Shown here: piece by piece, positions 1 through 19,399 of the stretch
Layout: every line of letters starts with the position of its first letter
Numbering within the stretch: position 1 is the stretch's first letter
DNA from: a virus
Taxonomy: Duplodnaviria > Heunggongvirae > Uroviricota > Caudoviricetes
Reading direction: 5' to 3' (one strand)
Virus record (IMG/VR): IMGVR_UViG_3300012943_000386
Location: 1-37,661 of that record
Length of the DNA stretch: 37,661 bases
Notes under the pieces: model-generated
Databases searched by the model: none
What the model was told of the DNA's origin: nothing
Seen by the model: the letters and a program-made list of their open reading frames with translations, nothing else
Made by a program: the position numbers and the translations under genes

Positions 1-93
1 ACGCTCGTAGGCCAGTTCCCTCTTGTATACCACGTATCGTAGGAACCCTCTATTACGGAGGGCGGGGTTGACGCTGCTTAACTGGCTATTGCG

Positions 94-378: not shown

Positions 379-596
379 TCCACCAATGGTGCGAGCTGGT
401 TGGCGACTTAGTTGGTTTTGGTTCCTGCGTTTAGCGTTGACATAGCTTCCTCCATTTTGAATAGTTGCAGGCCGGTGAGGTATCCGCTATTCGCTTCCCA
501 TTCTCCGTTTAGCTTTCCTTACCTGCGTCCGATGGCCTTAACGTAGTCGTACTACAGCCATCTGGCGTCGCGCGTGTACTTTGCGCTTCGCGTTAG

Positions 597-917
597 TTAG
601 CCAGCTTTGTGCTTGCTGGCAGTTTCATGGGCCTTGGTAACGGAAGCTTTGTACTTCCCACCATCAAGCTCATCCCATGATACGGTATCTTTCTTCTTGT
701 GAAAGCCGAGTTCACCAGGAATATCGCCGGTGATCTCAAGTGGCCAGGCCTGCATCATGATTGCTGTCTTGTCGCCGCCAAGGTGAAGAACGTCTCCGTC
801 CTTGATGTTGTCGTCCGTCTGAGTGCGGTCATAGGCAGCTGAACCACCTTCTGCGCACTCCTTGCTGAAGTCATGAACCTTGATTGGTCGTGGTCCGGCG
901 ATTTCAAAGAGCTTCAT
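597..917 (-). CDS. hypothetical protein (106 aa)
   Basis: AGGAG RBS before ATG; ATAAATA motif at 939-945 upstream. Confidence 0.7.
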   Translation of the reverse strand: MKLFEIAGPRPIKVHDFSKECAEGGSAAYDRTQTDDNIKDGDVLHLGGDKTAIMMQAWPLEITGDIPGELGFHKKKDTVSWDELDGGKYKASVTKAHETASKHKAG

Positions 918-944
918 GTTGATCTCCTATAGAGATCATATTTA

Positions 945-1023
945 TGGTGGACCAAACCGGACTCGAACCGGCGATACTCCTCCATTTCTGGGGAGGGCGG
1001 TTTCCTTACATACCACCTGGCCC
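945..1023 (-). tRNA. atypical tRNA or tRNA-like RNA with 8-nt anticodon loop (CCAGAAAU); identity undetermined
   Basis: Acceptor GGGCCAG/UUGGUCC-A-CCA, T arm GCCGG-UUCGAGU-CCGGU, anticodon stem CCUCC/GGAGG; no U33. Confidence 0.6.
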
Positions 1024-1110
1024 GTAAACCACATCGGCGCGTTGCATGATCGGGCCACGCCGACGAATTGGTTCCCTGCGAGCTCCCGACCATCTCGCTT
1101 GAACTTGATT

Positions 1111-1195
1111 TGGTACCCCTAACAGGAGTCGAACCTGCACACCTTGCGGTACGAGGACCTAAACCTCGCGCGTCTACCAGCTTCGCCATAGGGGC
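1111..1195 (-). tRNA. tRNA-Leu(UAG)
   Basis: Cloverleaf GCCCCUA...UAGGGGU-A-CCA, anticodon loop UU-UAG-GU, long variable arm. Confidence 0.95.
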
Positions 1196-1310
1196 ATTGA
1201 AATGGTCCGCCAATTTTCGATTGCGGCATCCTCAAGGGACTTCGGCGGACTTTACCGCGACATCACCTACACTGCTTGCTTGAGTTGCCTCAAGTGGGGC
1301 TTGTCGTTTT

Positions 1311-1393
1311 TGGTGCCTCTGGAAGGGGTCGGACCTTCACGCGTTTCCGCGCTGCGCTTTAAGGGCAGTGTGTCTACATTTCACCACAGAGGC
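1311..1393 (-). tRNA. tRNA-Leu(UAA)
   Basis: GCCUCUG/CAGAGGC-A-CCA, loop CU-UAA-AG, variable arm CGCG-GAAA-CGCG; T loop reads UCCGACC (C at position 55). Confidence 0.88.
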
Positions 1394-1399
1394 ATAATT

Positions 1400-1500
1400 T
1401 GGTAGCGGATGCTGGAGTCGAACCAGCTATCGCCAGGTTATGAGCCTGGAATGATACGTGGTCTCTTTCGAGACAGTCACATCCGTTTCACTCGCCCGCT
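1400..1500 (-). tRNA. tRNA with CAU anticodon (Met or Ile2) carrying a 27-nt hairpin inserted in the D loop
   Basis: Anticodon arm CCAGG-CUCAUAA-CCUGG, T arm GCUGG-UUCGACU-CCAGC, 3' ACCA; 101 nt in total. Confidence 0.8.
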
Positions 1501-1508
1501 ACAGAAAA

Positions 1509-1617
1509 TGGCGCGAAAGGTTGGGATCGAACCAACGGCCGCTCGGCTTTTCGCGTGACGCCAGGGTAGGCTAATCACGTTACTTCCCCAAGCCCTCTAC
1601 CACTGAGGTACTTCCGC
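1509..1617 (-). tRNA. tRNA-like RNA with a 41-nt structured segment in place of the anticodon loop
   Basis: Canonical body: GCGGAAG/CUUUCGC-G-CCA, D arm CCUC-AGUGGUA-GAGG, T arm GUUGG-UUCGAUC-CCAAC; anticodon stem CUUGG/CCGAG encloses 1547-1587. Confidence 0.75.
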
Positions 1618-1750
1618 AAATCGTTCGGTTTCACCAGTAGCGCATTATCGAGGAGAACGTTAGGGCTACCGAAACCACTCCGCTCTTCTAATCTCGTGCA
1701 CTTGCTGATGGGTTCCTACGCTAAGCGCTTCACGCTTTGGTGGAATTGGA

Positions 1751-1816
1751 TTGACAACAAAGGGGTTGGGAACGGATGGATCGAATGCATGATAACCATT
1801 CCCGATCGGTTGTCAA
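1751..1816 (-). ncRNA. stem-bulge small RNA, copy A (UUAUC motif)
   Basis: UUGACAAC-CG...GGGAAUGG-UUAUC-loop-CAU-CCGUUCCC-pyrimidine-rich bulge-GUUGUCAA; homologous to 1918-1991 and 2353-2416. Confidence 0.7.
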
Positions 1817-1825
1817 ATTTGAAAC

Positions 1826-1910
1826 TGGTGCCCTCGAGAGGACTCGAACCTCCACGCCTTTCGACTCTAGCACCTCAAGCTAGCGCGTCTACCAATTTCG
1901 CCACGAGGGC
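1826..1910 (-). tRNA. tRNA-Leu(GAG)
   Basis: GCCCUCG/CGAGGGC-A-CCA, loop UU-GAG-GU, long variable arm. Confidence 0.95.
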
Positions 1911-1917
1911 AAATCAA

Positions 1918-1991
1918 GAGAACAAAAATGAAGGACGGTGTTTTGAACTGCTTGTTAAGCTGCTTGGATAACCATCACATCGCCGGTTCTC
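1918..1991 (-). ncRNA. stem-bulge small RNA, copy B (UUAUC motif)
   Basis: GAGAAC-CG...GAUGG-UUAUC-loop-CA-CCGUC...UUUUU-GUUCUC; outer stem sequence differs from copies A/C but still pairs. Confidence 0.62.
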
Positions 1992-2003
1992 AAAACCATT
2001 CTA

Positions 2004-2219
2004 TCACGTAACAATCTCGCCAGCCATCTTTTGCTCATGCGCAAGCTGGGCGTCGAGAAGACGTTGATCTTCTGGAGAAAGGTTTCCAGCATTCGCCTTT
2101 AGGTAGGCGACGCGGGCGGCACAGCGCTCGAAGGCTTCCTTGAGAAGCTTATCGATGCGGTCGAGCAGAACGTGCGCCTCTTTGATGAGGGCAATTCGCT
2201 CTTCGTCCGAAAGTGCCAT
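2004..2219 (-). CDS. small helical hypothetical protein (71 aa, MALSDEER...) inside the tRNA array
   Basis: AGGAG RBS before ATG at 2219; the longer track ORF runs through tRNA-Gly, so its upstream extension is unlikely. Confidence 0.7.
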   Translation of the reverse strand: MALSDEERIALIKEAHVLLDRIDKLLKEAFERCAARVAYLKANAGNLSPEDQRLLDAQLAHEQKMAGEIVT

Positions 2220-2268
2220 GACATTCTCCTTAAAAGACAAACGGGCATATTTCAGCCCTAGACCAAAT

Positions 2269-2342
2269 TGGAGCGGGATGCGAGACTCGAACTCGCTTCG
2301 TTGGTGTGGAAGACCAAGGCACAGCCTATATACCAATCCCGC
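2269..2342 (-). tRNA. tRNA-Gly(UCC)
   Basis: GCGGGAU/AUCCCGC-U-CCA, anticodon arm UUGGU-CUUCCAC-ACCAA, U73. Confidence 0.93.
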
Positions 2343-2352
2343 ATGAAAAGGA

Positions 2353-2416
2353 TGACAACAAAAAGGAGCTGACGGATGTTTCTAACCAAAAGATAACCAT
2401 CAACGAACGGTTGTCA
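2353..2416 (-). ncRNA. stem-bulge small RNA, copy C (UUAUC motif)
   Basis: UGACAAC-CG-UUC-GUUGAUGG-UUAUC-loop-CAU-CCGUCAGC-UCCUUUUU-GUUGUCA. Confidence 0.7.
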
Positions 2417-2429
2417 AATCGAAAAGGAA

Positions 2430-2555
2430 GGCAGCGGCGGGGTTTGCACTCGCAACGCCTGTCAAGCGCGTTTCCCTGATACCCTCGTGGTTTGACAGCA
2501 CCACTACTCTTGTCAGGATAGAACCGGCATCGTTCACCGGCTCGCTAACACTGCC
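2430..2555 (-). ncRNA. 126-nt tRNA-like RNA with a potential kissing-loop interaction; no encoded CCA
   Basis: Acceptor-like GGCAGUG/CGCUGCC, D-like hairpin CCGGU/GCCGG, extended arm UCCUGA/UCAGGG, T-like arm GCGAG-UGCAAAC-CCCGC; loop CUGUCAA is complementary to loop UUGACAG. Confidence 0.6.
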
Positions 2556-2563
2556 ATTGAAAC

Positions 2564-2652
2564 TGGTGGGTATGGTAGGGATCGAACCTACTATGGCCGC
2601 AAGGCCGTCTGCTTTACAGGCAGATGTGACACTCCAACTTCACCGCATACCC
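2564..2652 (-). tRNA. tRNA-Tyr(GUA)
   Basis: GGGUAUG/CAUACCC-A-CCA, arm UCUGC-CUGUAAA-GCAGA, long variable arm. Confidence 0.92.
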
Positions 2653-2657
2653 AAAAC

Positions 2658-2743
2658 TGGTGGAGCCTCTTGGATTTGAACCAAGGTTGCCCGAAGGCGG
2701 CAGATTTACAGTCTGCTGGTTTAAGCCGCTCACCCAAAGCTCC
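2658..2743 (-). tRNA. tRNA-Tyr(GUA), second divergent copy
   Basis: GGAGCUU/AGGCUCC-A-CCA, arm GCAGA-CUGUAAA-UCUGC, long variable arm. Confidence 0.94.
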
Positions 2744-2760
2744 AAAGAAAAGCTGATTTG

Positions 2761-2874
2761 CTACGCTGGTTCAGCTCGAACCTCGATAGACCCACGACAG
2801 CGTCGTGAGCTCAAATTGTGCGCCGCATTTACCAGACCCACGAGTTGTGTGGGTCACCTCGTCGTGAGACGTAG
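2761..2874 (-). ncRNA. candidate structured RNA with an internal duplication
   Basis: Terminal CUACG/CGUAG pairing, hairpins at 2791-2809 and 2835-2855, AGACCCACGA and GTCGTGAG each occur twice; lies between tRNAs. Confidence 0.4.
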
Positions 2875-2895
2875 GAAGATCGACGCTTCTTGTAT

Positions 2896-2970
2896 TGGTG
2901 CACCCTGTAGGGATCGAACCTACGGCATCCCACTTGTAAGGAGGGCGCTCTACCGCTGAGCTAAGGGTGC
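2896..2970 (-). tRNA. tRNA-Val(UAC)
   Basis: GCACCCU/AGGGUGC-A-CCA, loop CU-UAC-AA. Confidence 0.96.
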
Positions 2971-3319
2971 ATGAACACTGTGAGAGCTCAACGCCTAGGC
3001 GGAGCTCATCACTAAAAATCGTACCAGGCTCGCACTCCTCCATCCTCAGGCTGGTCCACCGGATGGTCTCTTAGCGGTCCAGTTATTTGTTAGGTCGGGC
3101 TCATCGGCCTCATACCGAGCGGAACTCTTAACCGCTCTCTAAAACGAACTCGGGGAGCTTTTTGGCTCCCCGGGTATCAAAGTCTGGTTTTGTTTAGACT
3201 TTAAACCCGGGTCGTGCTTCCTGCACCGAGCAATACACTACCGGCCAGTGAGACTGGCGAATAGGAAATGCTTGTAGGTAGGGCTATGGAAGACATGACA
3301 TCCTCAGAATTGTGTACCG

Positions 3320-3327
3320 TATTTATA
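3320..3327 (-). promoter_or_regulatory. T4-type late promoter TATAAATA upstream of the tRNA array
   Basis: Exact match to the T4 late consensus, oriented toward the tRNA cluster. Confidence 0.6.
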
Positions 3328-3409
3328 CGGGGCCGTCAATCTTCGCAACGACCCTGCATCAATGTAGGGATAGATCTTATCACACCGGAATGATGATGTA
3401 AACTGACGC

Positions 3410-3415
3410 TAAATA
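3410..3415 (+). promoter_or_regulatory. putative late promoter TAAATA for the acyltransferase
   Basis: Lies 24 nt upstream of ATG 3440; the same motif precedes many genes in the window. Confidence 0.5.
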
Positions 3416-3439
3416 TCCAATCAGCATCTAAGGCGGATC

Positions 3440-4654
3440 ATGAAAACTCGAATTACGACGGAACAGGACTTCAGCGTCAAGCTGTGCGGTTTGGATTTCG
3501 TCGGAGGGTTCATTTACATCAGAAGCCTCGTGTATCTAAAGCATCATCTAGACGTTGACAAATTTGCCGCTGCCATCTCTACAACCATTGCCTCCTATCC
3601 TTATTTGGCTGGTACCGTCGTAATTCGTGATGGCGCCCACTACATCGAGCCCGGCATCGGCGTAGAGTTTGAGTATGATGACGTCGATGTGCCTTGCCCG
3701 CCCGTTGGGCTGAATATCCCCGTGCGCACAGAGCTCCTGCCGAAAAGTGGGTGGCCTGTTGGTGGTCCGCTCGTGTACATAAAGATTACGCGCTTCAATG
3801 ACGGAACCTGCGCTCTATCTCAATCAGTAGCGCACGTTGTTGGCGATGCCGTGAGCTGTAGGTTATGGTCAAACCTGTTGATGAAGAACTATGTGAGTGA
3901 TGAACCATTTTTATCAGAACCAGACATTCGGCGCCTGTCTACGTTTGAACCACTTGAATATCCATCAAGCCAATTTTCTGCTGATAGGCCAGCGGTCGGG
4001 ATTGAGGATACAAAGCGCATCAACTTCTTCATTGATCATCCTCAGCTGGTAAAGCTTCGACGCACGACAAAACTGGCAGGCATCAGCGCGGTTGATATGA
4101 TCCGCGCGCTGATAGTCAAGACGTTCAATGACGTGTGCAAATCAGAGATTTCTGTCCAGATGGTTTACAACGCGCGGTATGTTCAGGGATCCGACATTCC
4201 AAAAGCATACACTGGAAACAGCAACCTGAAGTGGAAGTGCGACATACCAAAAAATCCAATGTCGATATTCGAAACCGCCTCCCTGCTGAAGGCACAGCCA
4301 ACGCCAACGGCACAGGATGTCAAGCGCGAGATAGCGCTGATACAGAAAAAATATGAAGAGAACGGGCTGATGTTCAACGGTGGCATCATTGGCGCAACAT
4401 CTCAGCAGTCCGATAAGTCAACGCTGACCATCAACATTGCGACGGTGGCATCATTGGCGTTGAACGATGAGGTTTTGCATCGTGAGCTGCTGATATTGGT
4501 ACCGGAAAAATTTCCATTCAACCTGGCATGTGTCTTCAGCATCATGGATGCGAGCAACAGGGCATCGTTGATAATACCAATTATCCTTGACGTAGAGATA
4601 GTTGATGAGTTTGAGCGGCGGTTTAGCGCTGCGCTCAGCTCGCTTGGGGTTTAG
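3440..4654 (+). CDS. CoA-dependent acyltransferase (BAHD/transferase or condensation-like fold)
   Basis: HXXXD motif VAHVVGDAVS; N-terminal pattern ...YPYLAGTV...; 404 aa; no DFGWG motif seen. Confidence 0.72.
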   Translation: MKTRITTEQDFSVKLCGLDFVGGFIYIRSLVYLKHHLDVDKFAAAISTTIASYPYLAGTVVIRDGAHYIEPGIGVEFEYDDVDVPCPPVGLNIPVRTELLPKSGWPVGGPLVYIKITRFNDGTCALSQSVAHVVGDAVSCRLWSNLLMKNYVSDEPFLSEPDIRRLSTFEPLEYPSSQFSADRPAVGIEDTKRINFFIDHPQLVKLRRTTKLAGISAVDMIRALIVKTFNDVCKSEISVQMVYNARYVQGSDIPKAYTGNSNLKWKCDIPKNPMSIFETASLLKAQPTPTAQDVKREIALIQKKYEENGLMFNGGIIGATSQQSDKSTLTINIATVASLALNDEVLHRELLILVPEKFPFNLACVFSIMDASNRASLIIPIILDVEIVDEFERRFSAALSSLGV

Positions 4655-5666
4655 TTCCACCGACCAGCATCATGCCGCCCGTAGTGGCGCTGAACTGGAT
4701 ATCCTTAAATCCTACTAGAAGCAAAAGCTCTTCCAGCTCACGCTTAGTTCTTTGCTTGCCGCCGGCCAGGGCCATGGTAAGATTGAACAGCGCGGTCAAC
4801 ATCGGCCCACTTTTGTCGTCGTTCCAGGTGTGCTCATGAAGCCAAATCTTCCCACCTGCTTCAAGGTGTTGATACGCCTCATAGCAGATCAGCGAGCACG
4901 CCCTATCATCAAAGCCGTGCAAGAAATTTCCAATGAAGACTGTGTCAAACTTACCGAGAACCCATGGAACCTTGAACGCGTCGAGTGGGCATAGTGAGAT
5001 TTTATCACCTACTCCAGCAGCCTCAATGAATGGAGCGATGTTTGGGAACGCCGACGGTAGCTCAGCCAAAACAACGCTGATCTCTGGGTATTTGAGAACA
5101 AGTGGGATTGAAAACACACCTGAACCACCAGCCAGATCCAGCACATTTTTAGAACCAGCGAATAGACCGCTGTTTACAGCAGCAAGGTTGGCTGGTAAGT
5201 TGCGCACCTGCTGATTTAGCAGCCGCTCATGAGTGCCAAAGTTCAGCGGCGCGAACTGTGGTAGCGAATACACATCTGGTATTGGCTTTTTCAAAAAGTA
5301 TGGCGGAATTGGATCAGTTAGATACAGCTCATCACCAATGTAGAATGGGCTTGAGGCCGAGATGTAGTCACGCGCGAGTGGCGTTGCCACATATCTTCCG
5401 TCAACGTGTACGGCTATTCCTGCAGCACAGAGAATACCTAGAAGTCCTCTAATGGCACCCAGGTTCAGGTCAGTGCGCATCATGATGTCTTCTGGCATCA
5501 CGGGCCTGTCGAGCAGCGCGGCAGTGACACCGTGATCTATGCTCCATTTGACATACTGCGCGATGGCGCGCTCGATTGGGAACAGGCGAATGCCAATGGC
5601 ATTCAGTAGCTCATTTATGTCTGTCGATGGCGGTGTCAGGGCGCGCCACTGCTCAGCGTCCATCAT
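4635..5666 (-). CDS. SAM-dependent O-methyltransferase, family 2, with N-terminal dimerisation wHTH
   Basis: VLDLAGGSG, FIGNFLHGFDD, GGKQRT motifs; start placed at 5666 by ATGA coupling to the upstream stop. Confidence 0.85.
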   Translation of the reverse strand: MMDAEQWRALTPPSTDINELLNAIGIRLFPIERAIAQYVKWSIDHGVTAALLDRPVMPEDIMMRTDLNLGAIRGLLGILCAAGIAVHVDGRYVATPLARDYISASSPFYIGDELYLTDPIPPYFLKKPIPDVYSLPQFAPLNFGTHERLLNQQVRNLPANLAAVNSGLFAGSKNVLDLAGGSGVFSIPLVLKYPEISVVLAELPSAFPNIAPFIEAAGVGDKISLCPLDAFKVPWVLGKFDTVFIGNFLHGFDDRACSLICYEAYQHLEAGGKIWLHEHTWNDDKSGPMLTALFNLTMALAGGKQRTKRELEELLLLVGFKDIQFSATTGGMMLVGGTKPQAS

Positions 5667-6388
5667 GATTTTACACCTACAAAGCCTGCGAAATTCATGC
5701 AGCGCCAGAAGCAATCTGCTTTAAATCCTACGAGCTCAAGGGATATGATATTTTCCTCAGCGGTGCGTGGGACAAGAACACCAACAAGTGATTTTTTCTT
5801 GCTAGCTATCTCCTCACGTGTATATCCGTTTGAATGCTTCATGTCCTCATACCATTCGGTGAGCTCATCATCAATCGACTGGTTTCTACCGAGAACCTTT
5901 TCTACAACGATGAAAACACCACCAGGCACTGTATTTTGATATGCCTGCTGGATGATGCGAGCACGTTCTTTTGGCTCGATGAACTGAAGCGTGAGCACCG
6001 CAAGCGTTACGGATGCTGGAGCAACAGGGTACATCTGTGTAAGATCTACCTGCTCAATGCTAACAATGCCAGCGTCAATGTGGTGCTTGAAGCGTTCTTT
6101 GGCTGCCGCCACCATAGGTGCGGAGACATCTACACCAAGATAGTTGAGATCATTACCGACGGCCATCAGGAAGTCATTGATTGACGCGCCGCGTGAACAC
6201 CCTAGATCAACCAGATGTGTTTCTGGCTTGGCATGACGGGCTCCAATCTCTAGCACGAGGCGGCGCATGTTGGCATAGTCAGGGATAGAGCGCCTGAGCA
6301 TGTCCTCAAAAACGGTCGTTACTGACGCGTCAAACTTCCATTTACCGTCTGGGAAGTGACCGAGCGACGTTTCAGCTGGCTGTTCCAC
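5663..6388 (-). CDS. CmoA-like class I SAM-dependent enzyme
   Basis: W-x-FD...VF-x-DML-x-RSIPDY, DLGCS-x-G, LTLQFI and IVVEKV closely follow the CmoA family pattern. Confidence 0.75.
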   Translation of the reverse strand: MEQPAETSLGHFPDGKWKFDASVTTVFEDMLRRSIPDYANMRRLVLEIGARHAKPETHLVDLGCSRGASINDFLMAVGNDLNYLGVDVSAPMVAAAKERFKHHIDAGIVSIEQVDLTQMYPVAPASVTLAVLTLQFIEPKERARIIQQAYQNTVPGGVFIVVEKVLGRNQSIDDELTEWYEDMKHSNGYTREEIASKKKSLVGVLVPRTAEENIISLELVGFKADCFWRCMNFAGFVGVKS

Positions 6389-7613
6389 TTTTCAGTGCCC
6401 TGCTTGCAGCATAGAAACAGGCGGCGGCCATGGTGTATCCAAACGCATAGATGCCGAGGATGGAATATCCAAGAGCGGCTGGACCGACCAGCGGTGTGAA
6501 GACGTCGCTGAAATAACCAACGATGATTGGGCCGAGTGAAAGACCAATGAGGTTCGTTACCAACACGTGGCTAGCTTGTCCCATGGCCCTTCTGTCCGGA
6601 CCAACGGCGCGCTGTTCGATGTTTGTCACAATACCGATGTTCATGTGCATCGACACGATGATGAAGCTGAGCGCCGCGATAGCAATAGGGAAACTGCCAG
6701 CAGTAAACATCAACACCGCGAATGGAATTACGCCAAGCACTGAAGCAATAGACACCCAAAGTCTGGCCTTATCACCAAGCTTTGTTACTAGCTTCTCAGC
6801 CATCCAAGTACCAGATAGAACGCCAACCATGCCACCGATACCATACATCAAACCCATTAGAAGACCGGCACTGGTGGTGCTGACCTCATGTACGCGCATA
6901 AAGTAGGATGCCATCCACATGCCGGAACCTGTTGCAGCCATCACGGTGAAAGCTGAGGCAGCTATTGTCCAGCAAAAATCCTTCTTCTTCCAAAGCTCCT
7001 TCACAGTCGTAAGAAATGGTTCCCTTGCAGCAGTGCTTTCACGTGGTGGTTCTTTGATCGTGAACTTTACGAGCAGCGTTAGTAGAAGTCCCGGGATACC
7101 AACAGCCAAGAAGGCGGCGCGCCACCCATAGTTGGCGCTAATCCAACCACCAAGCACGAACGAAACTAGAACCCCGAGTGGAGTAGTCGATGCGAGAATT
7201 GAATAGACCTTAGCGCGTTTTTCCGGTGGGAAATACTCTGATGCGATGGAGACTGAGCTTGGATAAGCACCAGCTTCACCTATACCTACACCAATTCTTG
7301 ACAAGAAAAAGGTGAAGAAGCCCGTCACTAGACCACAGGCGGCCGTCATGGTGCTCCAAAGACCCAGACACACGCTCATGATGGTTGTTCTATTCTTCCT
7401 ATCGAGCAGATACGCTATTGGAATACCCATCAGCGAATAGAAAAGAGAGAATGACAGGCCAGAGATCATTCCGAGCTGCGTGTCTGAGAACCCGAATTCA
7501 GCCTTGATCCCCGGAAAGAGGACCGAAATGATCTGCAGGTCGACCATTCTGAGCAGCATGACAAGCCACAGCACGGCCAAGACATAGTAGCTGTATAAAA
7601 GTTTGTTCTTCAT
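6372..7613 (-). CDS. MFS transporter (spinster-like, about 12 TM helices)
   Basis: YLLDRKNR motif A variant, RIGVGIGEAG, repeated hydrophobic segments. Confidence 0.92.
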   Translation of the reverse strand: MKNKLLYSYYVLAVLWLVMLLRMVDLQIISVLFPGIKAEFGFSDTQLGMISGLSFSLFYSLMGIPIAYLLDRKNRTTIMSVCLGLWSTMTAACGLVTGFFTFFLSRIGVGIGEAGAYPSSVSIASEYFPPEKRAKVYSILASTTPLGVLVSFVLGGWISANYGWRAAFLAVGIPGLLLTLLVKFTIKEPPRESTAAREPFLTTVKELWKKKDFCWTIAASAFTVMAATGSGMWMASYFMRVHEVSTTSAGLLMGLMYGIGGMVGVLSGTWMAEKLVTKLGDKARLWVSIASVLGVIPFAVLMFTAGSFPIAIAALSFIIVSMHMNIGIVTNIEQRAVGPDRRAMGQASHVLVTNLIGLSLGPIIVGYFSDVFTPLVGPAALGYSILGIYAFGYTMAAACFYAASRALKSGTAS

Positions 7614-7638
7614 CGATAGGTATCCTTATGCGATGCGG

Positions 7639-7645
7639 TATTTAT
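7639..7645 (-). promoter_or_regulatory. putative late promoter ATAAATA for MFS/CmoA-like/OMT
   Basis: Sits in the 43-nt gap between the ligase and MFS genes, followed by an AAGGA RBS. Confidence 0.5.
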
Positions 7646-7656
7646 CGGCTCATAGT

Positions 7657-9123
7657 TCACGCGCTTGGTTGAACTAGAAGCTGAACAGAGCTTCTGTCTA
7701 CCTTACCCGTTACGGTCGTTGGGAGGTGATCGACAAATCGTATGACCTGCGGAATTACGTGTGGGGCGACAAGCTTTGACAGGTGGCTGATGATCTGCAC
7801 CTCACTGACGCCAGGTGCAGCAATGACCGCGACACCAACAGCCGTATGCCCAAGTCTATCGCTGACTGGCACCGCGCAGGCGGCAGATATTCCATCACAG
7901 TTTAGAAGCGCCTGTTCAATCTCTAGCGGATAGACGTTGCCGCTCTTACAGATGAACATATCATCGACGCGGCCTCGCCAGAACATGAACCCATCTCCAT
8001 CTCGATAGAACACGTCTCCAGTCTTATACCACCCATCATGAAAACGGCTCTCATTTAGCTCTTCATCAAGGTAGCATTTTTCAACGGTGGCGTTCTTGAC
8101 CCAAAGCTCACCGAGGCTTTTGTGTTCGTTGCCATCGACGTCGATGAGCTTCACTTCACCATAGTGATGACGGCCACAGCTTCCGCGCTTGAACTTAGCA
8201 CTCATTTTTTCATCGTTGGAAAATGATATTCCTGGGATGCATTCCGTGGCCCCATACGTAGAAATGATGAAGGCGCCCAGCTTTCTCTCTACCTCATCAT
8301 ACAGGTGGTGCGGGCAGGCCTCACCACCGGCAAAGCAATACTTCAGATCACTAAAGTTATAGTCGACCTTTGACTTGAGGACCAGCGAAAACATTGATGG
8401 GATCAGCATCATCGTGTTAGCCTTGACGCTTGATGCCAGCTTGAGATACGAGTTTGGTTGGAAGCCGTCAATCATGTACAACGGTCTGTTGATGGCGAGC
8501 GCGTCGAGGAAATCCAACAATCCACCAATGTGACTGAACGGGAGAACAGAAATATGTGGTGCGCTCATTGAGGTAAACGTGTCAGCCAAGAACTTGTCAA
8601 TGAAGTACTGAACGAAGTTCATAAGCACGCCGTGAGTTCGATGAATGGCCTTTGGTTTGCCGCTTGACCCGGACGTAAAGAGGATGACTGCCCTAGTTGA
8701 TGCATCAAGCTCAGCCACTACGAGCGGTGCAGACGGAAGCGTGAGGATGCTCTCCATTGAAATGGCGATCGAGCATGATTGCGGAATTGCGATGCCCCTT
8801 AGCTCACCATGAATGCACGCCACGGGGCTCAGAAATTCTAAAGATCGCCTGATCGGTGAAATGTCCGCAGTTGGATTTAGCGGGATGGCGATGGCACCAA
8901 TGCTGATCGTAGCAAGAAAAGCGACGATCATTTCAACACTGTTTTTGGAAATGATGAGAACGTGGTCGCCGGCTTGAACGCCGCGTGCGAGTAGATTGGC
9001 GCTCAGGGCACCGACGTGGCCAAGAATTTCCTGCTGAGAGAACGACCTAGTGATGGTCGCACCGACTGTTTCAAAGATGGTTTTGTCGGTGCGTTTCGCA
9101 TCGAGCAGTGATATGATATTCAT
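7657..9123 (-). CDS. AMP-forming acyl/aryl-CoA ligase (ANL superfamily) 1
   Basis: LFTSGSSGKPK, YGATE, YKTGD, GRVDD and LPTTVTGKVDR core motifs are all present. Confidence 0.92.
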   Translation of the reverse strand: MNIISLLDAKRTDKTIFETVGATITRSFSQQEILGHVGALSANLLARGVQAGDHVLIISKNSVEMIVAFLATISIGAIAIPLNPTADISPIRRSLEFLSPVACIHGELRGIAIPQSCSIAISMESILTLPSAPLVVAELDASTRAVILFTSGSSGKPKAIHRTHGVLMNFVQYFIDKFLADTFTSMSAPHISVLPFSHIGGLLDFLDALAINRPLYMIDGFQPNSYLKLASSVKANTMMLIPSMFSLVLKSKVDYNFSDLKYCFAGGEACPHHLYDEVERKLGAFIISTYGATECIPGISFSNDEKMSAKFKRGSCGRHHYGEVKLIDVDGNEHKSLGELWVKNATVEKCYLDEELNESRFHDGWYKTGDVFYRDGDGFMFWRGRVDDMFICKSGNVYPLEIEQALLNCDGISAACAVPVSDRLGHTAVGVAVIAAPGVSEVQIISHLSKLVAPHVIPQVIRFVDHLPTTVTGKVDRSSVQLLVQPSA

Positions 9124-9170
9124 TATGCTTTAGCGAGGCCCTACTAGGGCGTAGAATTCAGCGGTCGGTT

Positions 9171-9662
9171 TTATAGAGCGTCGAAGATACCCACGAGTAT
9201 CGCAGCATCGCTTGCCACTTCAGATGGCTCACCTGCTGGAATAGCAGCGATTGCAGCCTTCAGCAGTGAACGAGTATCGTCCATTTCTGCGTCGCGGTAT
9301 GCAAGTCTCCACCTCGTCCAAGCTTCATCACTCGCTTCTGAGAGACTAATTGCCGTTGCAAAGTCTGCATACGCTGAGAAGTAAACAACTCTAATTGAGT
9401 TGACGTCGTATGGCTCAAGAGCAGCAAAAATACCGTTGATCGTTGATACGTCTGAAGCATACTGCCCAGGGTTGGTTGAAGCAGCAATGAGCGAAGCCGC
9501 GAAGCTTGCATTTCTGTGAGAGCTCATGGACGGCGTAAGGAACGCGTTGATGTAACGATCAAAGGTCGTTGGATCGTTGGTGCTCTGACTGATTGCTGTG
9601 GCAAATGACTGATAGCCCTGCCTGTCCTTGACAATCAGATCTAGTGCTTCTTGGTTCGTCAT
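9171..9662 (-). CDS. orphan alpha-helical hypothetical protein (163 aa)
   Basis: GGAG RBS; ATAAATA at 9699-9705 upstream. Confidence 0.7.
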   Translation of the reverse strand: MTNQEALDLIVKDRQGYQSFATAISQSTNDPTTFDRYINAFLTPSMSSHRNASFAASLIAASTNPGQYASDVSTINGIFAALEPYDVNSIRVVYFSAYADFATAISLSEASDEAWTRWRLAYRDAEMDDTRSLLKAAIAAIPAGEPSEVASDAAILVGIFDAL

Positions 9663-9698
9663 GTTTTCTATCTCCAGGGGTGCTTCGGCCGCATCGAC

Positions 9699-9755
9699 TA
9701 TTTATTGGCATTCTCTTCCACAATAGAATTCTTATGATGGATTTGCAGGTAAATA
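9699..9755. promoter_or_regulatory. divergent TAAATA late-promoter pair
   Basis: ATAAATA on the minus strand (9699-9705) and TAAATA on the plus strand (9750-9755), each roughly 20-40 nt from a start codon with an RBS. Confidence 0.5.
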
Positions 9756-9774
9756 CTGCATCCAGGAGTTAGCC

Positions 9775-11280
9775 ATGTACCTCAACGAAAGCTTCCCAGA
9801 TAAGATCGCCATCATTCATGCCGATAGGAACGTTAGCATGACCTATGGCGAGCTTATTGACAGCTCAAATCAGGTCGCAAATTTCTTCAGGTCGGCAGGG
9901 CTGATGAGCGGTGATCATGTTGTGCTCCTGCTTCAAAATGTACCAGAATATCTCGTCGTTGCTTGGGGAGCGCTTAAGGCTGGGCTGCTCATCACCCCGC
10001 TAAACCTCAACATAGCAACGAAGGACATTGACTTCATCATCAAGGATTGCGGGGCGAGGGCGATAGTTTCATGCACCTCACAGCGCTCAATATTTTCAAA
10101 GCTTGAGCTTGACGGGATGACAAAGCTTCTCGTTGGAGATGGAACAGAGCCAGGATGGTCATCTCACAGCGAGGTAACGACGCTGTCTAGGACATGGGCA
10201 GACGAGCAGACAACAGTTGGGGCAGTGCGGTGCTACAGCTCAGGAACGACCGGGCGGCCTAAAGGCGTCGTGCTGCTACCAGGAAAGAAGCCAAGCGGAA
10301 ACTCATTCAAGGATGTCTACGCTCTTTCACCAAGCAGCGTTTACCTAAACCCATCTCCACTGTTCTACTCATCGGCCATTCACTTCTCGCTGATCCTTCA
10401 GGGGGCCGGGGGCACCGTTGTGCTCATTGATAGATTTACACCGTGCAAGGTGCTCGACTGCATTGAAAAGTACGGCATTACACACTGTCAACTGGTTCCA
10501 ACGATGATGGCACAGCTGCTGGAGGTCAAAAGGGATGTTGCTTCACACCTGCAAATGATCATCCACGGCGGCGCACCATGCCCGATCAATGTTAAGATGG
10601 GCATGATAGACTGGTTCGGTCCACTCATAATTGAAGTGTACACCTGCACTGAGGTGTATGGTGCAACCTACATCACAAGCGAAGAATGGCTTAGGAAACC
10701 CGGTTCAGTCGGAAGAGCGCTCCAGGGTATCCTTCACGTGTGCGGTGAAGATGGAAAAGAGCTACAGCCAGGAAATATTGGACAGGTGTATATTGAAAGT
10801 GGTATGCAGTTCAGATACACGCGTGAAGAGGAGATGAAGAAGCCGCATGAAAATGGTTGGCTCACTGTTGGTGACATCGGTTATCTTGACGCTGACGGCT
10901 ATCTGTTCTTAACCGATAGACAGGACTTCATGATCATCTCTGGCGGGGTAAACATTTACCCGAGCGCTGTCGAGGCGGCAATGCGACAGCATCCAGCGGT
11001 AAAGGACGTAGCAGTTTTTGGGCAGAAGCACCGAGTGCTTGGGCAGTCAGTTAAAGCCGTGGTTGTTTCATCAGAGCCACCGTCCCTCAAGCTGAAGCTC
11101 GAGCTCAAGCAGATGGTAAGAAACAGCGTGGCAAGATTTGCGGTACCGCGCCAAATCGTATTCGTAGATGAGCTGCCGTATGAGAACGGTAAGCTCAACA
11201 AGCTAAAACTTGCTGAGCTTACCAGCGATCTGGGCGGTACATCGCGCGGAGCTGAACCTCAGGCTTCGGCTCGTGATTGA
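9775..11280 (+). CDS. AMP-forming acyl-CoA ligase (ANL superfamily) 2
   Basis: YSSGTTGRPKG, GGAPCP, YTCTE, TVGDIG, DRQDFMIISGGVNIYP, ENGKL; AGGAG RBS. Confidence 0.92.
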   Translation: MYLNESFPDKIAIIHADRNVSMTYGELIDSSNQVANFFRSAGLMSGDHVVLLLQNVPEYLVVAWGALKAGLLITPLNLNIATKDIDFIIKDCGARAIVSCTSQRSIFSKLELDGMTKLLVGDGTEPGWSSHSEVTTLSRTWADEQTTVGAVRCYSSGTTGRPKGVVLLPGKKPSGNSFKDVYALSPSSVYLNPSPLFYSSAIHFSLILQGAGGTVVLIDRFTPCKVLDCIEKYGITHCQLVPTMMAQLLEVKRDVASHLQMIIHGGAPCPINVKMGMIDWFGPLIIEVYTCTEVYGATYITSEEWLRKPGSVGRALQGILHVCGEDGKELQPGNIGQVYIESGMQFRYTREEEMKKPHENGWLTVGDIGYLDADGYLFLTDRQDFMIISGGVNIYPSAVEAAMRQHPAVKDVAVFGQKHRVLGQSVKAVVVSSEPPSLKLKLELKQMVRNSVARFAVPRQIVFVDELPYENGKLNKLKLAELTSDLGGTSRGAEPQASARD

Positions 11281-11584
11281 ACTCGCGTGAGTGCTGCATA
11301 GCAACGATCATGAGGGCATTAGCGATATCGAAGGGGAAACCCTGGCGGTTCTCGGTATCGACGTTCAGCATGAACTGCAGCTTGTCGCTGAGCAGTTCAG
11401 TTCCCCAGCACGACGTGATCGTCTTGTGGATGCGTGGGAATTCCTTCGCGATCAGCTTGATGGCCTGCTGGCTCTCGGCCTTTGGGTGAAACGTAGCAGT
11501 CACGCATGAGGCGTCGGCGTGGTTGCGAGGATCGCTCGTGGCGCCAGATCTGTATTTTCCCGAATGTTCGAAGTAGCTAGTCAT
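11219..11584 (-). CDS. hypothetical protein with an FP..I...WG...RQGFP motif (121 aa)
   Basis: GGAGG RBS before MTSYFEH; early promoter at 11607-11636; overlaps the 3' end of the convergent ligase gene. Confidence 0.65.
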   Translation of the reverse strand: MTSYFEHSGKYRSGATSDPRNHADASCVTATFHPKAESQQAIKLIAKEFPRIHKTITSCWGTELLSDKLQFMLNVDTENRQGFPFDIANALMIVAMQHSREFNHEPKPEVQLRAMYRPDRW

Positions 11585-11606
11585 TGACGTATCCTCCGCA
11601 TAGGTC

Positions 11607-11636
11607 ATTATAACCTGCTTGCAATCTGGGATACAC
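11607..11636 (-). promoter_or_regulatory. early promoter GTGTAT-N18-TATAAT
   Basis: Member of a recurring -35/-10 family with an 18-nt spacer. Confidence 0.55.
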
Positions 11637-11637
11637 T

Positions 11638-12513
11638 TTACATAATGTCCCACGTGCGATCCTTGGGCTTGACAACTTCTAGGTTCTTCTCCCAGGCAGC
11701 CTTCATCAAGGCGGGCTTCACATTGAGAAGCTTAGCCACTTCTATGAGTGCACTAAGGTCCTTTGGAAAGCAGGCCCCTCGAACTCCAGCAATTCCATCC
11801 ACGCCCGGTACGTTCATATGTGAGCTGCCTAGGCGAGCGTCGTGGCTTGCTAGCGTCACAACCTCGTTGTAGTCTACTGACATACCTGCCCTCGTGAGCG
11901 CCTCACATACCTGGCTCAGCTCACAGCTGAGCACGACGCGCACCGCGAGCTGAATGTTGATGAAGTACTTTACCATCTCAGCTACGGTAGAACTGGATGC
12001 CTTCAGCACGTGGACATCGGGGAAGTAGGTGCGGTAGACATTTCGCACGACATTGACAGCTTCATGATTTCCACCTAGAATGATGAACTGCTGAGCTCTA
12101 GCGTCATTGAGCGAGTTTGCTTGAGTGAGGAACTCTGGGCTGAAAACAATCTGGAGGTTCTCGTAGCGCTTCGTCCACATCTCAACAGAGCCAGGTGGAA
12201 CGGTGCTCTTGACAACTGCTGTCCTGGTTCCTGGAACTGAGGCCAGTTGTTCTAGGATGTTCTCTACAATCGTGATGTCGGCTGCACCATCTTGCTCCAT
12301 AGGAGTTGGGACACAGATGAAGTAGATGCGTGAAAAATCTTTGAGCGCCTCACACGCTTTGATGAGGTCGCTGACTAACGGTGAAACTGCAATTGAGCCG
12401 TGGGTGTACTTACCGTTCTTGTCGCACGTGTAGACCGCTGCACCCTTTTCGGTGAAGATCGTGCTAAGCGCACTCCCGACGAACCCCTGCCCTATGACTG
12501 CTATCGATTTCAT
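11638..12513 (-). CDS. UDP-glucose/GDP-mannose dehydrogenase family protein lacking the C-terminal domain
   Basis: GQGFVG, FICVPTP, KST, SPEFL and GACFPKD motifs; only 291 aa. Confidence 0.85.
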   Translation of the reverse strand: MKSIAVIGQGFVGSALSTIFTEKGAAVYTCDKNGKYTHGSIAVSPLVSDLIKACEALKDFSRIYFICVPTPMEQDGAADITIVENILEQLASVPGTRTAVVKSTVPPGSVEMWTKRYENLQIVFSPEFLTQANSLNDARAQQFIILGGNHEAVNVVRNVYRTYFPDVHVLKASSSTVAEMVKYFINIQLAVRVVLSCELSQVCEALTRAGMSVDYNEVVTLASHDARLGSSHMNVPGVDGIAGVRGACFPKDLSALIEVAKLLNVKPALMKAAWEKNLEVVKPKDRTWDIM

Positions 12514-13696
12514 TGATGTGATTTGCTGATGGACCGTAACTTACATATTTAACAGGTAGGAAACGGTCAAGCGTCTGAATGAGAGCTTCAGCCGATTGTT
12601 GCCAACCACCGCGATCATCGTAGAACGAGAAATCGGCTGAAACTTGGTCGAAACAGGTAACGGCGAGTGATGGGGCATTGATCTTGATGCCAAGAAGTTC
12701 AGCGAGCGGTTTGCTGCGCTGAAGGTCGGCTTCAATGAACTGCTGAAGAACGCGCGTATCTAGTGGCGCGTACCTGAAATGCCCCTGCCATTCTCCAGTG
12801 ACATTAGTCGCGTCGACAATTTCAGTGGAAGAGAACTTCTCACCCTCATGTAGAAGATGGCCTGCGCCATGGCGCGTCTTGTAGCAGCGGGTGACATAGA
12901 CTGGTGAGAGCTCTTGAACGCCTACTTCCCTTGCCGCTAAAAGAGCTGTTGGCAAGCCAGTCACTGAGCGCGTAACGTGTGGGAATTTTCCAAGGAATTC
13001 GTCAAGCTGCAGGCCTTGAGCTCCCTCAAAGACAAACTGCTTATCGTCACTCCGTGGGCGTGGGGTGATCTTGGAGAAGACCTCTGCGGCCGCCCGCAGG
13101 CTCTGACCTTCATTGAGCAGGTCTACGGCATCGAGCAGCTTCTCAACTTCAGGATCGCTTGAGTTGAACTTGCCAAGTTCGATTTTCCAGTAGTTCTTGT
13201 ACGTGTGCTGCAGCTTCTTCCAGAAGCGCTCATCAGTGAGGTCCTCTACGGTCAACGAGAACCCAGCCAGCTTTCGAGTAATCGTATCGTTGATGCCCAT
13301 GCCACATGAACCGTGGCGACCGCTTCCGCGTGATAGCTCACGCAGGCGGTTCAGCACGATGTCGAACGCCGTTGTTACCTCGGCGTGTGGGTGAACTTCT
13401 ACCTGAGGCTGAACGATGGCGTCGGCCATCTGCGTGCGCAGCACGTCAAGCTCTCGGTGCAGCATGAACGGGTTGGTGATAAAGTTGCTGGAGAGGAACG
13501 TTGCAGCACCGGCAAACGTTCCAGCCCCAACATGACTAAACACGTGTCTTCGATTACCATCAACTACCGTGTGACCGGCTTGAGCTCCGCCGTTGAAGCG
13601 AACTACCGTCGCCGGAAATTCCTTCCGACTTAGGTAGTCGGTGATGAGGCCTTTACCCTCATCACCGAACCCAGCGCCGATCACTACGTAGTTCAC
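12464..13696 (-). CDS. adenylosuccinate synthetase-like protein (PurA family)
   Basis: GAGFGDEGKG, RFNGGAQAGHTV, FEGAQG, TRHGAG, SYGP. Confidence 0.85.
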   Translation of the reverse strand: MNYVVIGAGFGDEGKGLITDYLSRKEFPATVVRFNGGAQAGHTVVDGNRRHVFSHVGAGTFAGAATFLSSNFITNPFMLHRELDVLRTQMADAIVQPQVEVHPHAEVTTAFDIVLNRLRELSRGSGRHGSCGMGINDTITRKLAGFSLTVEDLTDERFWKKLQHTYKNYWKIELGKFNSSDPEVEKLLDAVDLLNEGQSLRAAAEVFSKITPRPRSDDKQFVFEGAQGLQLDEFLGKFPHVTRSVTGLPTALLAAREVGVQELSPVYVTRCYKTRHGAGHLLHEGEKFSSTEIVDATNVTGEWQGHFRYAPLDTRVLQQFIEADLQRSKPLAELLGIKINAPSLAVTCFDQVSADFSFYDDRGGWQQSAEALIQTLDRFLPVKYVSYGPSANHINEIDSSHRAGVRRECA

Positions 13697-14607: not shown

Positions 14608-14631
14608 CGCTGTGCTCCTTTTTCCTTATGA

Positions 14632-15318: not shown

Positions 15319-15408
15319 GACGTTTCTCCTTACAAGTTAGTTGACACACGGCACGTGTACTATGTGTTGCAAGTACGGCGTGCCGCCGCAGTACATGCCA
15401 AATCGAAA

Positions 15409-17138: not shown

Positions 17139-17176
17139 GATAAGCTCCTTATCGTGAAATGCGCTGAGGTCGTTCC

Positions 17177-19363: not shown

Positions 19364-19399
19364 GCTCCCTCGGTTGAAGCGGGCTTGTGGGCCAAAAGC

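Follow-up and report, generated by a model that had tools for sequence, protein, structure and literature searches.

A phage-borne island of acyl-activating, acyl-transferring and CmoA-type genes with counterparts in bacterial natural-product loci

In the published systems that use carboxy-S-adenosylmethionine (Cx-SAM), CmoA or its homologue is paired with a dedicated carboxymethyltransferase: CmoB, which modifies tRNA, the CmoB homologue TglF, which modifies the thiol of a scaffold peptide, or MccB's C-terminal domain (MccB-CTD), which modifies a peptidyl-nucleotide and illustrates that the acceptor enzyme need not be CmoB-like (PMC10491745). A further system operates on phage DNA, where CmoX installs a carboxymethyl group (5-carboxymethylcytosine, 5cxmC) that the AMP-forming ligase CmoY then converts into a glycine amide; Cx-SAM synthesis has been demonstrated for the CmoA homologue of Synechococcus phage S-B43 (PMC12783734). 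Here we describe a phage locus that combines a CmoA homologue with a different set of partners. It is a block of seven contiguous genes (hereafter the island) within a stretch of 37,661 bases (the window) that forms the beginning of the 101,661-base IMG/VR record IMGVR_UViG_3300012943_000386. The island encodes an acyltransferase of the BAHD family, a methyltransferase of the Methyltransf_2 family, a CmoA homologue, a transporter of the major facilitator superfamily (MFS), two adenylate-forming ligases of the ANL superfamily (ANL1 and ANL2) and a small helical protein. We propose, with a probability of about 0.5, that it is a conserved auxiliary metabolic island through which an organic acid is taken up, activated, transferred by the BAHD enzyme and carboxymethylated.

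Like the CmoA/CmoX/CmoY system, the island clusters a phage CmoA homologue, 37–44% identical to CmoAs of that kind, with AMP-forming ligases and with a transferase that has a methyltransferase fold, and a carboxyl handle would likewise be followed by adenylation. It differs in several respects: the transferase is a small-molecule-type Methyltransf_2 enzyme and not a C5-DNA methylase, the ligases belong to PF00501 and are not asparagine-synthetase-like, BAHD and MFS genes are added, and the CmoA falls into a separate clade shared with bacteria. With the TglE/TglF system of 3-thiaglutamate and the MccS/MccB-CTD system of microcin C-like compounds (PMC10491745) the island shares a CmoA homologue placed in secondary metabolism next to a dedicated partner. 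That partner, however, is COMT/DsyB-like, no PEARL, LanB or MccB gene is present, and the use of Cx-SAM is suggested here by gene adjacency only. In plants, the trio 4CL/HCT/COMT draws on the same three superfamilies and follows the same logic, from an acid to a CoA thioester, to BAHD transfer, to tailoring by a methyltransferase. The original prediction, made from the sequence of the window alone, had invoked this trio. The analogy holds at the superfamily level only: the phage BAHD model does have an HCT-like fold, superposing on plant HCT with a template-modelling (TM) score of 0.72–0.76, but its identity to the plant enzymes is 13–18% and it lacks their DFGWG motif, the methyltransferase is nearer to DsyB and bacterial enzymes than to plant COMT, 4CL is just one of many equally distant ligase matches, and there is no sign of hydroxycinnamate substrates.

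Phage-borne biosynthetic clusters, as surveyed by Dragoš et al. (bioRxiv 10.1101/2020.10.01.322628), are reported mainly from temperate phages. The present set differs from them in that it combines several acyl-activating and tailoring enzymes and that its carrier is a T4-like jumbo myovirus, with no integrase among the open reading frames (ORFs) scanned. A CmoA in a jumbo phage is not new in itself, as Erwinia phage Y3 carries one beside an asparagine synthase. What appear to be undescribed are the combination of acid activation, BAHD transfer and tailoring with a transporter in virulent jumbo phages, the partnership of CmoA with Methyltransf_2 in both phages and bacteria, and the small helical protein that accompanies the BAHD enzyme. 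We found the island in no GenBank or cultured phage: megablast of the island and the rest of the window against GenBank phages returned a single match, 142 bp of NAMPT, and tblastn with ANL2 and the MFS protein returned only distant matches (at most 30% identity), many of them in records resembling host contamination. The carriers are most likely a group of uncultured, lytic T4-like jumbo myoviruses.

Phage residence and conservation in three lineages

The block is truly phage-borne and conserved, and is no assembly artefact. Elsewhere in the record are genes for a large terminase, for the tail sheath and tube, for a head-tail adaptor and for ribonucleotide reductase and helicases. The terminase is 44% identical to that of Ralstonia phage RsoM2USA and about 40% identical to those of the jumbo myoviruses PA5oct (and PA5oct-like phages), Atu_ph07 and XacN1. 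A second assembly, a 198-kb ENA contig, matches window positions 1–14654 with 100% identity and runs about 107 kb further upstream. This places the block about 110 kb inside the genome, in phage sequence of at least 209 kb in total, from both ends of which it is separated by more than 100 kb. The one property that might favour a chimera, that is, a piece of host chromosome fused to a phage contig during assembly, is composition. The GC content at third codon positions (GC3) of the island is 0.47–0.57 compared with 0.687±0.063 in core phage genes (n=32), and its relative synonymous codon usage correlates with that of the core at 0.47–0.66 compared with 0.86±0.06 for the core itself. However, in two related phages the GC3 of the island is likewise shifted down by a similar offset, each relative to its own genome composition, which fits long residence with weaker codon bias rather than a chimera. 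Moreover, both junctions are identical in the two assemblies, versions of the island recur at this locus in two further phage lineages, again between the same flanking genes, and phage-type promoter motifs precede its units. We give a chimera practically no chance. The contig continuity and phage origin on which the original prediction depended are thus borne out by the independent assembly, the structural genes and the additional lineages.

One of these lineages (L007/L008/L009) was recovered from Logan assemblies by an exhaustive HMMER search with a profile of the transferase and by exact look-ups; a search of IMG/VR for related loci with the BAHD protein, its two-sequence profile and an MFS profile gave no relatives. 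In L007 the tRNA array is followed by the BAHD gene on the plus strand and then, on the minus strand, by Methyltransf_2, CmoA, MFS, ANL1, a 167-aa counterpart of the small helical protein, a 119-aa protein and a gene resembling UDP-glucose dehydrogenase (UGDH), with NAMPT and NMNAT further on. Identities to the window are 35% for BAHD, 48% for Methyltransf_2, 61% for CmoA, 76% for MFS, 46% for ANL1, 40% for the small protein, 60% for the 119-aa protein and 47% for the UGDH-like protein, NAMPT at 72% serving for comparison. The other lineage (L002) carries, between purA and a tRNA array, a BAHD gene (28.5%), an ANL2-type ligase (38%), a 78-aa small protein and a TylF-type methyltransferase. Common to all three lineages are therefore BAHD, the small helical protein, one ANL ligase and one methyltransferase, and the set MFS-CmoA-Methyltransf_2-ANL1 is common to two. 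The site is the same throughout, namely the locus of the tRNA array and NAD salvage genes, and the phage copies of each protein are closer to one another than to any bacterial copy. This pattern fits one ancient capture followed by vertical descent with gene loss or replacement. The neighbourhood search suggested along with the original prediction has thus yielded two more phage lineages, as well as bacterial loci with the same partnerships, although the gene set varies.

A separate observation concerns L007, where a 312-aa radical-SAM protein is encoded between the UGDH-like gene and NAMPT (L007:11885-12823, minus strand). Its CPVGCRFC motif we take to be RlmN/Cfr-like; tblastn found no counterpart in the 101-kb record.

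Predicted enzymes and their bacterial counterparts

The island had been predicted to encode two methyltransferases, and both proteins indeed have class I methyltransferase folds, which bind S-adenosylmethionine (SAM). One of them, however, is by its profile and structure matches a predicted homologue of the CmoA-type Cx-SAM synthase. It covers positions 13–239 of the 239 positions of TIGR00740 with 160 bits, below the cut-off of 193. A phage CmoA encoded next to a C5-DNA methylase, and thus linked to CmoX (L010), scores the same 160 bits, so the sub-threshold value is probably a property of these divergent clades and not a sign of decay. The protein further matches phrog_4752 (224 bits) and the structure of Escherichia coli CmoA (PDB 4gek, E 3e-32), in which the residue that we take, by hand numbering, to be R199 aligns with K198. 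In an unrooted maximum-likelihood tree of eight CmoA sequences, built without housekeeping CmoA, the four methyltransferase-linked ones (two phage, two bacterial) split off with support of 100/98 from the other four, which are phage proteins linked to a C5-methylase, ParB or asparagine synthase.

The Methyltransf_2 protein retains the motifs DLAGGSG and LHGF. Its best PDB match is DsyB (7wdw, E 3e-25), the S-methyltransferase of dimethylsulfoniopropionate (DMSP) synthesis, with ASMT, DnrK and COMT far behind. DMSP synthesis itself was rejected as a function, for the DsyB match amounts to just 92 bits and no aminotransferase, reductase or decarboxylase of that pathway is present. The protein belongs to PF00891 and thus falls outside the families of the known Cx-SAM transferases, and PF08003 (CmoB/TglF) and PF00145 (CmoX) are unmatched in the 101-kb record; what we propose is a similar mode of action, not membership of those families. 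Its gene is nevertheless repeatedly coupled to CmoA. The CmoA stop codon overlaps the Methyltransf_2 start (ATGA in the window, a 1-nt overlap in L007), MFS, CmoA and Methyltransf_2 being translationally coupled in two phage lineages, and in bacteria of two phyla CmoA is adjacent to Methyltransf_2 or one gene away. Because the codons overlap in two phages and the pairing recurs in two bacterial phyla, we infer that the Methyltransf_2 family, or at least its CmoA-linked members, may use Cx-SAM, a proposal to which we give even odds and under which the enzyme would be a fifth kind of Cx-SAM user. A comparison of CmoA-linked with unlinked sequences (four versus three) gave Y115, K/R126 and D221 as group-specific columns, the first two of which recall the Tyr/Lys/Arg carboxylate cage of CmoB (PMC10491745). 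Since one of the two supposed methyltransferases is CmoA-type and its stop overlaps the start of the other, the chemistry is more likely carboxymethylation than plain O-methylation.

The MFS protein matches best, over its full length, the NCBIfam model TIGR00893 for the D-galactonate transporter of the anion:cation symporter (ACS) subfamily (124 bits, cut-off 395), followed by the aromatic-acid:H+ symporter model at 90 bits. Identity to the L007 copy is 76%, and an MFS protein encoded beside ANL1 in a Steroidobacteraceae metagenome-assembled genome (MAG; L020) shares 40%. By these model scores it appears nearest to organic-anion importers, and the transport direction may be inward. The original suggestion that it exports a diffusible product runs against this ranking, as efflux models reach just 40–60 bits.

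Both ligases are intact in the ANL core motifs previously claimed for them: ANL1 has TSGSSGKPK (A3 P-loop), YGATE (A5), GRVDD (hinge Asp) and TGKV (A10 Lys), and ANL2 has SSGTTGRPK, YTCTE, TDRQD and NGKL at the same respective places. Their Pfam scores are 175 and 209 bits, and they are just 25% identical to each other. ANL1 shares 46% identity with its L007 counterpart and 35% with a ligase encoded beside MFS and a polyketide synthase (PKS) in L020; its best PDB matches are FadD10, feruloyl-CoA synthetase and 4CL, all at E values of about 1e-32 to 1e-35. ANL2 is 38% identical to the L002 ligase and 32–35% identical to the ligases that directly follow the Methyltransf_2 homologue in four bacterial loci (L014, L018, L019 and L020). 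Both match FadD, MatB, MenE, feruloyl/4CL enzymes and adenylation domains of nonribosomal peptide synthetases (NRPS) about equally. A search for the carrier-protein family PF00550 in the 101-kb record at E≤1 found none.

The BAHD protein has the catalytic motif H132-VVG-D136, with His and Asp invariant in 40 homologues. Its AlphaFold2 model, built from a 40-sequence alignment, has a predicted local distance difference test score (pLDDT) of 90.7. Among the top 50 PDB and top 30 Swiss-Prot matches shown, nearly all are plant BAHD enzymes, joined by fungal TRI101; they include HCT, COSY, SHT, spermidine/putrescine hydroxycinnamoyl transferases and alcohol acyltransferases, with E values around 1e-22 (best 6e-23), TM scores of 0.72–0.78 and the low identities given above. 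The C-terminal DFGWG string of the plant and fungal clades occurs in none of the three phage BAHD proteins. Judging from the model, the phage enzyme belongs to a divergent branch of the CoA-thioester-dependent BAHD fold that bacteria and phages share and that lies outside the plant clades.

A small helical protein accompanies BAHD in all three phage lineages. In the window it is 163 aa long and, in its predicted model (pLDDT 75.6), consists of two copies of a four-helix unit of about 80 aa; homologues were found only in the three lineages, as the 167-aa protein of L007 and as a single 78-aa unit in L002 that corresponds to one repeat and is 36% identical to each half. No Pfam family matches it even at E≤10, and an index of 5.8 billion proteins holds only three members. 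Against the PDB, Foldseek with this model of pLDDT 75.6 returned nothing at E≤0.001 and the wide VIA-align search a best Z of 3.8. An Atlas feature search gave DUF4214/RsaA_NTD clusters (score 0.92, few shared features), which we treat as a lead only. The possibility that it is a carrier protein was not adopted: PF00550 is unmatched at E≤10, a Ser is invariant in the first repeat only, and the carrier-protein fold is absent among the structure matches of the pLDDT 75.6 model.

The closest cellular homologues of the Methyltransf_2 protein are 41–45% identical and lie in the natural-product-like loci L012 and L014 (Table 1). Further bacterial relatives came from GTDB genomes, where a profile of two sequences found nothing and one of eight succeeded, the loci then being annotated by tblastn and Pfam. 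Three cassettes (L019, L020 and L021) share homologues of five of the seven phage genes at 25–50% identity, with the same adjacencies. The bacterial versions hold a PKS module, a peptidyl carrier protein with a thioesterase, or efflux genes, all of which the phage versions lack; the small helical protein and the phage promoter-like motifs, in turn, belong to the phage versions. Other bacterial BAHD homologues adjoin glycosyltransferases of families GT1, GT2 and GT4, a full-length UGDH, a heparinase and an O-methyltransferase. The original view that these are enzyme families acting on small molecules agrees well with the position of the bacterial homologues in PKS/NRPS-like and tailoring clusters. 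Because bacterial MAGs carry the same gene partnerships, the island gives the impression of natural-product chemistry acquired from bacteria, and the bacterial cassettes are its likely source pool. In their own right, the cassettes hint that soil Proteobacteria and Acidobacteriota make an unstudied family of carboxymethylated natural products.

Gene layout and neighbouring features

The seven genes occupy positions 3440–11280 as originally predicted, all with intact ORFs and with the expected domains and catalytic motifs (Table 1). The predicted surroundings also proved correct: seven tRNAs lie on one side and purA-like, NAMPT and NMNAT genes on the other, and no integrase or transposase family was found among the ORFs scanned at 3440–18331, a scan that begins after the short ORFs of 1–3440.

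Table 1. Features of the window (positions in the window unless a locus is named) and bacterial loci with homologues; percentages are identities to the phage proteins
Feature	Position	Strand	Remarks
Seven-tRNA array	1111-2970	-	tRNA calls
TAAATA motif before BAHD	3410-3415	+	25 nt upstream of start
BAHD acyltransferase (PF02458 Transferase), 404 aa	3440-4654	+	Pfam 26.9 bits, cut-off 22.7
Methyltransf_2 (PF00891), 343 aa from ATG at 5666	4635-5666 (ORF to 5714)	-	PF00891 E 2e-16
Predicted CmoA-type Cx-SAM synthase homologue, 241 aa	5663-6388	-	TIGR00740 E 7e-47
MFS_1 transporter (PF07690), 413 aa	6372-7613	-	175 bits
TAAATA motif before MFS-CmoA-Methyltransf_2 operon	7639-7644	-	
ANL1 adenylate-forming ligase, 488 aa	7657-9123	-	PF00501 + PF13193
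Helical repeat protein, 163 aa	9171-9662	-	First gene of ANL1 operon; no Pfam family
TAAATA motif before 163-aa/ANL1 unit	9699-9704	-	
TAAATA motif before ANL2	9750-9755	+	
ANL2 adenylate-forming ligase, FadD4/PRK13390-like, 501 aa	9775-11280	+	NF038341 433 bits, cut-off 850
129-aa protein (144 aa from GTG)	11219-11608 (ORF to 11653)	-	No Pfam/PHROG/Atlas family
UDP-glucose/GDP-mannose dehydrogenase-like (UGDH-like), 291 aa	11638-12513	-	PF03721 + PF00984 match
purA-like gene	12464-13696	-	PurA 137 bits
TAAATA motif before UGDH-like gene	12546-12551		
NAD+ salvage set (NAMPT, NMNAT-Nudix)	15609-18331	-	
Permuted tmRNA	19360-19701	-	ARAGORN; TAAATA upstream at 19722-19727
Bacterial locus L012			Megasynthase, ketoreductase (KR), second O-methyltransferase, Rieske oxygenase, carbamoyltransferase
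Bacterial locus L014			PanD, PP-binding protein, Methyltransf_2 then directly ANL (35% to ANL2), thioesterases
Bacterial locus L017			Bacterial metagenome contig, outside GTDB scan; ANL2 fragment, O-methyltransferase, sulfotransferase, BAHD homologue (26%)
Bacterial locus L018			Pseudomonadota MAG; Methyltransf_2, then ANL2
Bacterial locus L019	L019:69-3457		Gammaproteobacteria MAG; CmoA (49%), then Methyltransf_2 (41%), then ANL2 (34%)
Bacterial locus L020	L020:311-12652		Steroidobacteraceae MAG; methyltransferase, α/β-hydrolase, MFS (40%), ANL1 (35%), type I PKS module (KS-AT-KR-ACP), Methyltransf_2 (37%), then ANL2 (33%), HlyD/MacB efflux
Bacterial locus L021	L021:2251-6493		Vicinamibacterales MAG; CmoA (50%), then MFS (25%), then Methyltransf_2 (36%), then second O-methyltransferase

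The units of the island are preceded by the motif TAAATA, which behaves as a phage promoter core. The window contains 17 copies where 4.3 would be expected, and the 101,661-base record contains 34, of which 28 are on the minus strand, which codes for most genes; 24 of the 34 lie 5–59 nt upstream of a same-strand ORF start, as opposed to 12.9±3.0 when positions are drawn at random. The T4 late promoter TATAAATA is longer and has only two copies in the window, and scans for sigma-70 promoters and terminators gave counts at chance level.

The conserved unit may extend to the 129/144-aa protein and the truncated UGDH-like gene, both of which are present in the L007 lineage, the former as the 119-aa protein at the equivalent place. 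Both have codon use like that of the phage core. The UGDH-like protein retains the catalytic-Cys motif GACFPKD, PF03720 (the C-terminal nucleotide-sugar-binding domain) is unmatched, and the L007 copy (L007:10994-11839) is equally short; its membership in the pathway is uncertain. We found nothing to support the idea that the 129-aa protein is a detached C-terminal domain of the UGDH-like protein. The purA-like gene matches phrog_1211, named PurZ, a type of enzyme that belongs to phages with 2-aminoadenine (the Z base). The PurZ assignment was rejected, since NCBIfam scores PurA at 137 and PurZ at 45 bits, and on these scores it is probably a PurA-like auxiliary gene.

The NAD+ salvage set adjoins the island in all three lineages and in L002 (L002:1859-5423) additionally includes phosphoribosyl pyrophosphate synthetase. 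Its strongly biased, high-GC3 codon use suggests high expression. The adjoining tRNA arrays contain tRNAs with anticodons of the type that carries uridine 5-oxyacetic acid (cmo5U), namely Leu-UAG and Val-UAC in the window and Pro-UGG and Ala-UGC in L007. The permuted tmRNA further along the window has the tag peptide ANDDNYMELRLAA.

A proposed pathway and its alternatives

If the genes of the island act together, the following scheme can be envisaged. The MFS protein would import an anionic organic acid; that this is the acid activated by ANL1 is suggested by L020, where MFS stands beside ANL1 and a separate MacB/HlyD exporter is present, together with the importer-like profile. ANL1 and/or ANL2 would adenylate carboxylic acids, most likely yielding CoA thioesters, because no carrier protein was found in the phage record and a BAHD enzyme is present. 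With its HxxxD dyad, the latter would acylate a hydroxyl or amine group on an acceptor. The CmoA homologue would turn SAM and prephenate into Cx-SAM, with which the coupled Methyltransf_2 enzyme would carboxymethylate the acid or the acceptor, and the new carboxylate could be a substrate of an ANL ligase. Given that ANL2 is encoded right after Methyltransf_2 in four bacterial loci, it may be ANL2 that activates the Methyltransf_2 product, possibly at the new carboxymethyl carboxylate. The genes would have been captured from bacterial natural-product or tailoring clusters and then placed under phage promoters. It is tempting to go further and to speculate that virulent jumbo phages run a self-contained small-molecule conjugation, that Methyltransf_2 is a fifth class of Cx-SAM carboxymethyltransferase and that the product alters the outcome of infection, but this extended version is doubtful. 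Were it true, an imported acid would become a phage-specific carboxymethylated acyl ester or amide or, equally well, the pathway would inactivate a small molecule, such as a competitor's anti-phage metabolite or a plant or host compound; in both cases the product would be diffusible. The original prediction that the phage makes or modifies a diffusible molecule is upheld as far as the small-molecule enzyme families, their intact motifs and their conservation go; nothing in the analysis shows the product to be a signal, an antibiotic or a plant phenolic, as had been suggested.

Several observations weigh against the proposed pathway. The record covers just 25% of the phage genome by the CheckV estimate. 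The gene set is not fixed: one lineage has ANL1 where another has ANL2, and MFS, CmoA and Methyltransf_2 are missing from L002. Neither ligase exceeds any NCBIfam equivalog cut-off, the best being ANL2 on FadD4 with 433 against 850, and the ligase matches point to no one substrate. The bacterial ANL1 and ANL2 homologues adjoin carrier domains in L014 and L020, unlike those of the 101-kb phage record, where none is found. As to Cx-SAM, no phage-specific basic residue for its carboxylate stood out in the eight-sequence Methyltransf_2 alignment, and the Y115 and K/R126 columns are weak, coming from four versus three sequences, and are unplaced in three dimensions. CmoA is absent from the surroundings of the closest bacterial Methyltransf_2 homologues, those of L012, L014 and L020, so Cx-SAM is not always needed by the family. 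CmoA could also act alone, for example in tRNA wobble modification or SAM depletion.

Three other explanations of the island have to be weighed. It might decorate the cell envelope or a glycoconjugate, BAHD acylating and the methyltransferases modifying a sugar-containing acceptor such as lipopolysaccharide, a glycolipid, capsule or a nucleotide sugar. A uronic acid would then come from the UGDH-like gene product, and the effect could be superinfection exclusion or a late change of the cell surface. The retention of the UGDH-like gene beside the island in two lineages speaks for this, as do the TylF-type (sugar O-) methyltransferase of L002, the bacterial BAHD homologues near GT1, GT2 and GT4 glycosyltransferases, full-length UGDH and heparinase and, as a lead only, the DUF4214/RsaA-N-terminal proteins (0.92) among the nearest Atlas clusters of the small protein. 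We consider it unlikely, however, for the island contains no glycosyltransferase, flippase or polysaccharide gene, the UGDH-like protein, without its nucleotide-sugar-binding domain and with core-phage codon use, may be unrelated, and the homologues of Methyltransf_2 and the ligases lie in PKS/NRPS-type and not in glycan clusters. A further explanation is hypermodification of nucleic acids, in which Cx-SAM would be the donor for carboxymethylation of phage DNA or of the phage's own tRNAs, the new carboxylate then being coupled to an amine by an ANL ligase. All experimentally studied phage CmoAs do serve DNA modification (PMC12783734), CmoA homologues of other phages adjoin a C5-DNA methylase, ParB or asparagine synthase, the neighbouring tRNA array has cmo5U-type anticodons, and the passage from carboxyl handle to AMP-forming ligase is parallel. 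Yet neither PF00145 nor the CmoB family PF08003 was found in the 101-kb record, no member of the Methyltransf_2, BAHD or MFS families is known to act on nucleic acids, DNA modification has no use for an MFS transporter, and the CmoA groups with bacterial methyltransferase-linked CmoAs, apart from those of DNA systems. With the same partnerships recurring in bacterial PKS-type clusters, hypermodification seems to us a slightly poorer candidate still.

It is also conceivable that there is no single pathway and that the island is a hypervariable 'moron' region collecting independent auxiliary genes: CmoA might raise cmo5U levels in host tRNA or use up SAM, the MFS protein might bring in nutrients and the ligases might work in fatty-acid metabolism. 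The varying gene content of the three lineages, the five separate promoter-like motifs in the island and its codon use unlike the core would all be explained, and the neighbouring cmo5U-type tRNAs alone would justify a CmoA. Against it, the same families are found as neighbours in unrelated bacteria, MFS, CmoA and Methyltransf_2 are translationally coupled in two lineages, and BAHD, the small protein, an ANL ligase and a methyltransferase travel together in all three. We rate this explanation lowest of the three, and prefer the acid activation, transfer and carboxymethylation pathway.

To our knowledge, when lytic phages carry auxiliary metabolic genes, these nearly always code for individual enzymes that supplement central or nucleotide metabolism. 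A set of seven to nine genes for enzymes of secondary-metabolism type and a transporter, kept by three diverged jumbo-phage lineages under phage promoter-like motifs, implies a small-molecule transformation that is useful in the lytic cycle. The hypothesis is open to direct heterologous expression, as the genes are few and all products but the MFS protein are soluble. The pairing of CmoA with Methyltransf_2 points to an unrecognised natural family of carboxymethyltransferases, enzymes that are sought after for bio-alkylation chemistry (PMC7496830). If this is the case, the pairing would extend the strategy of combining a carboxyl handle with an AMP-forming ligase from phage DNA to metabolites.

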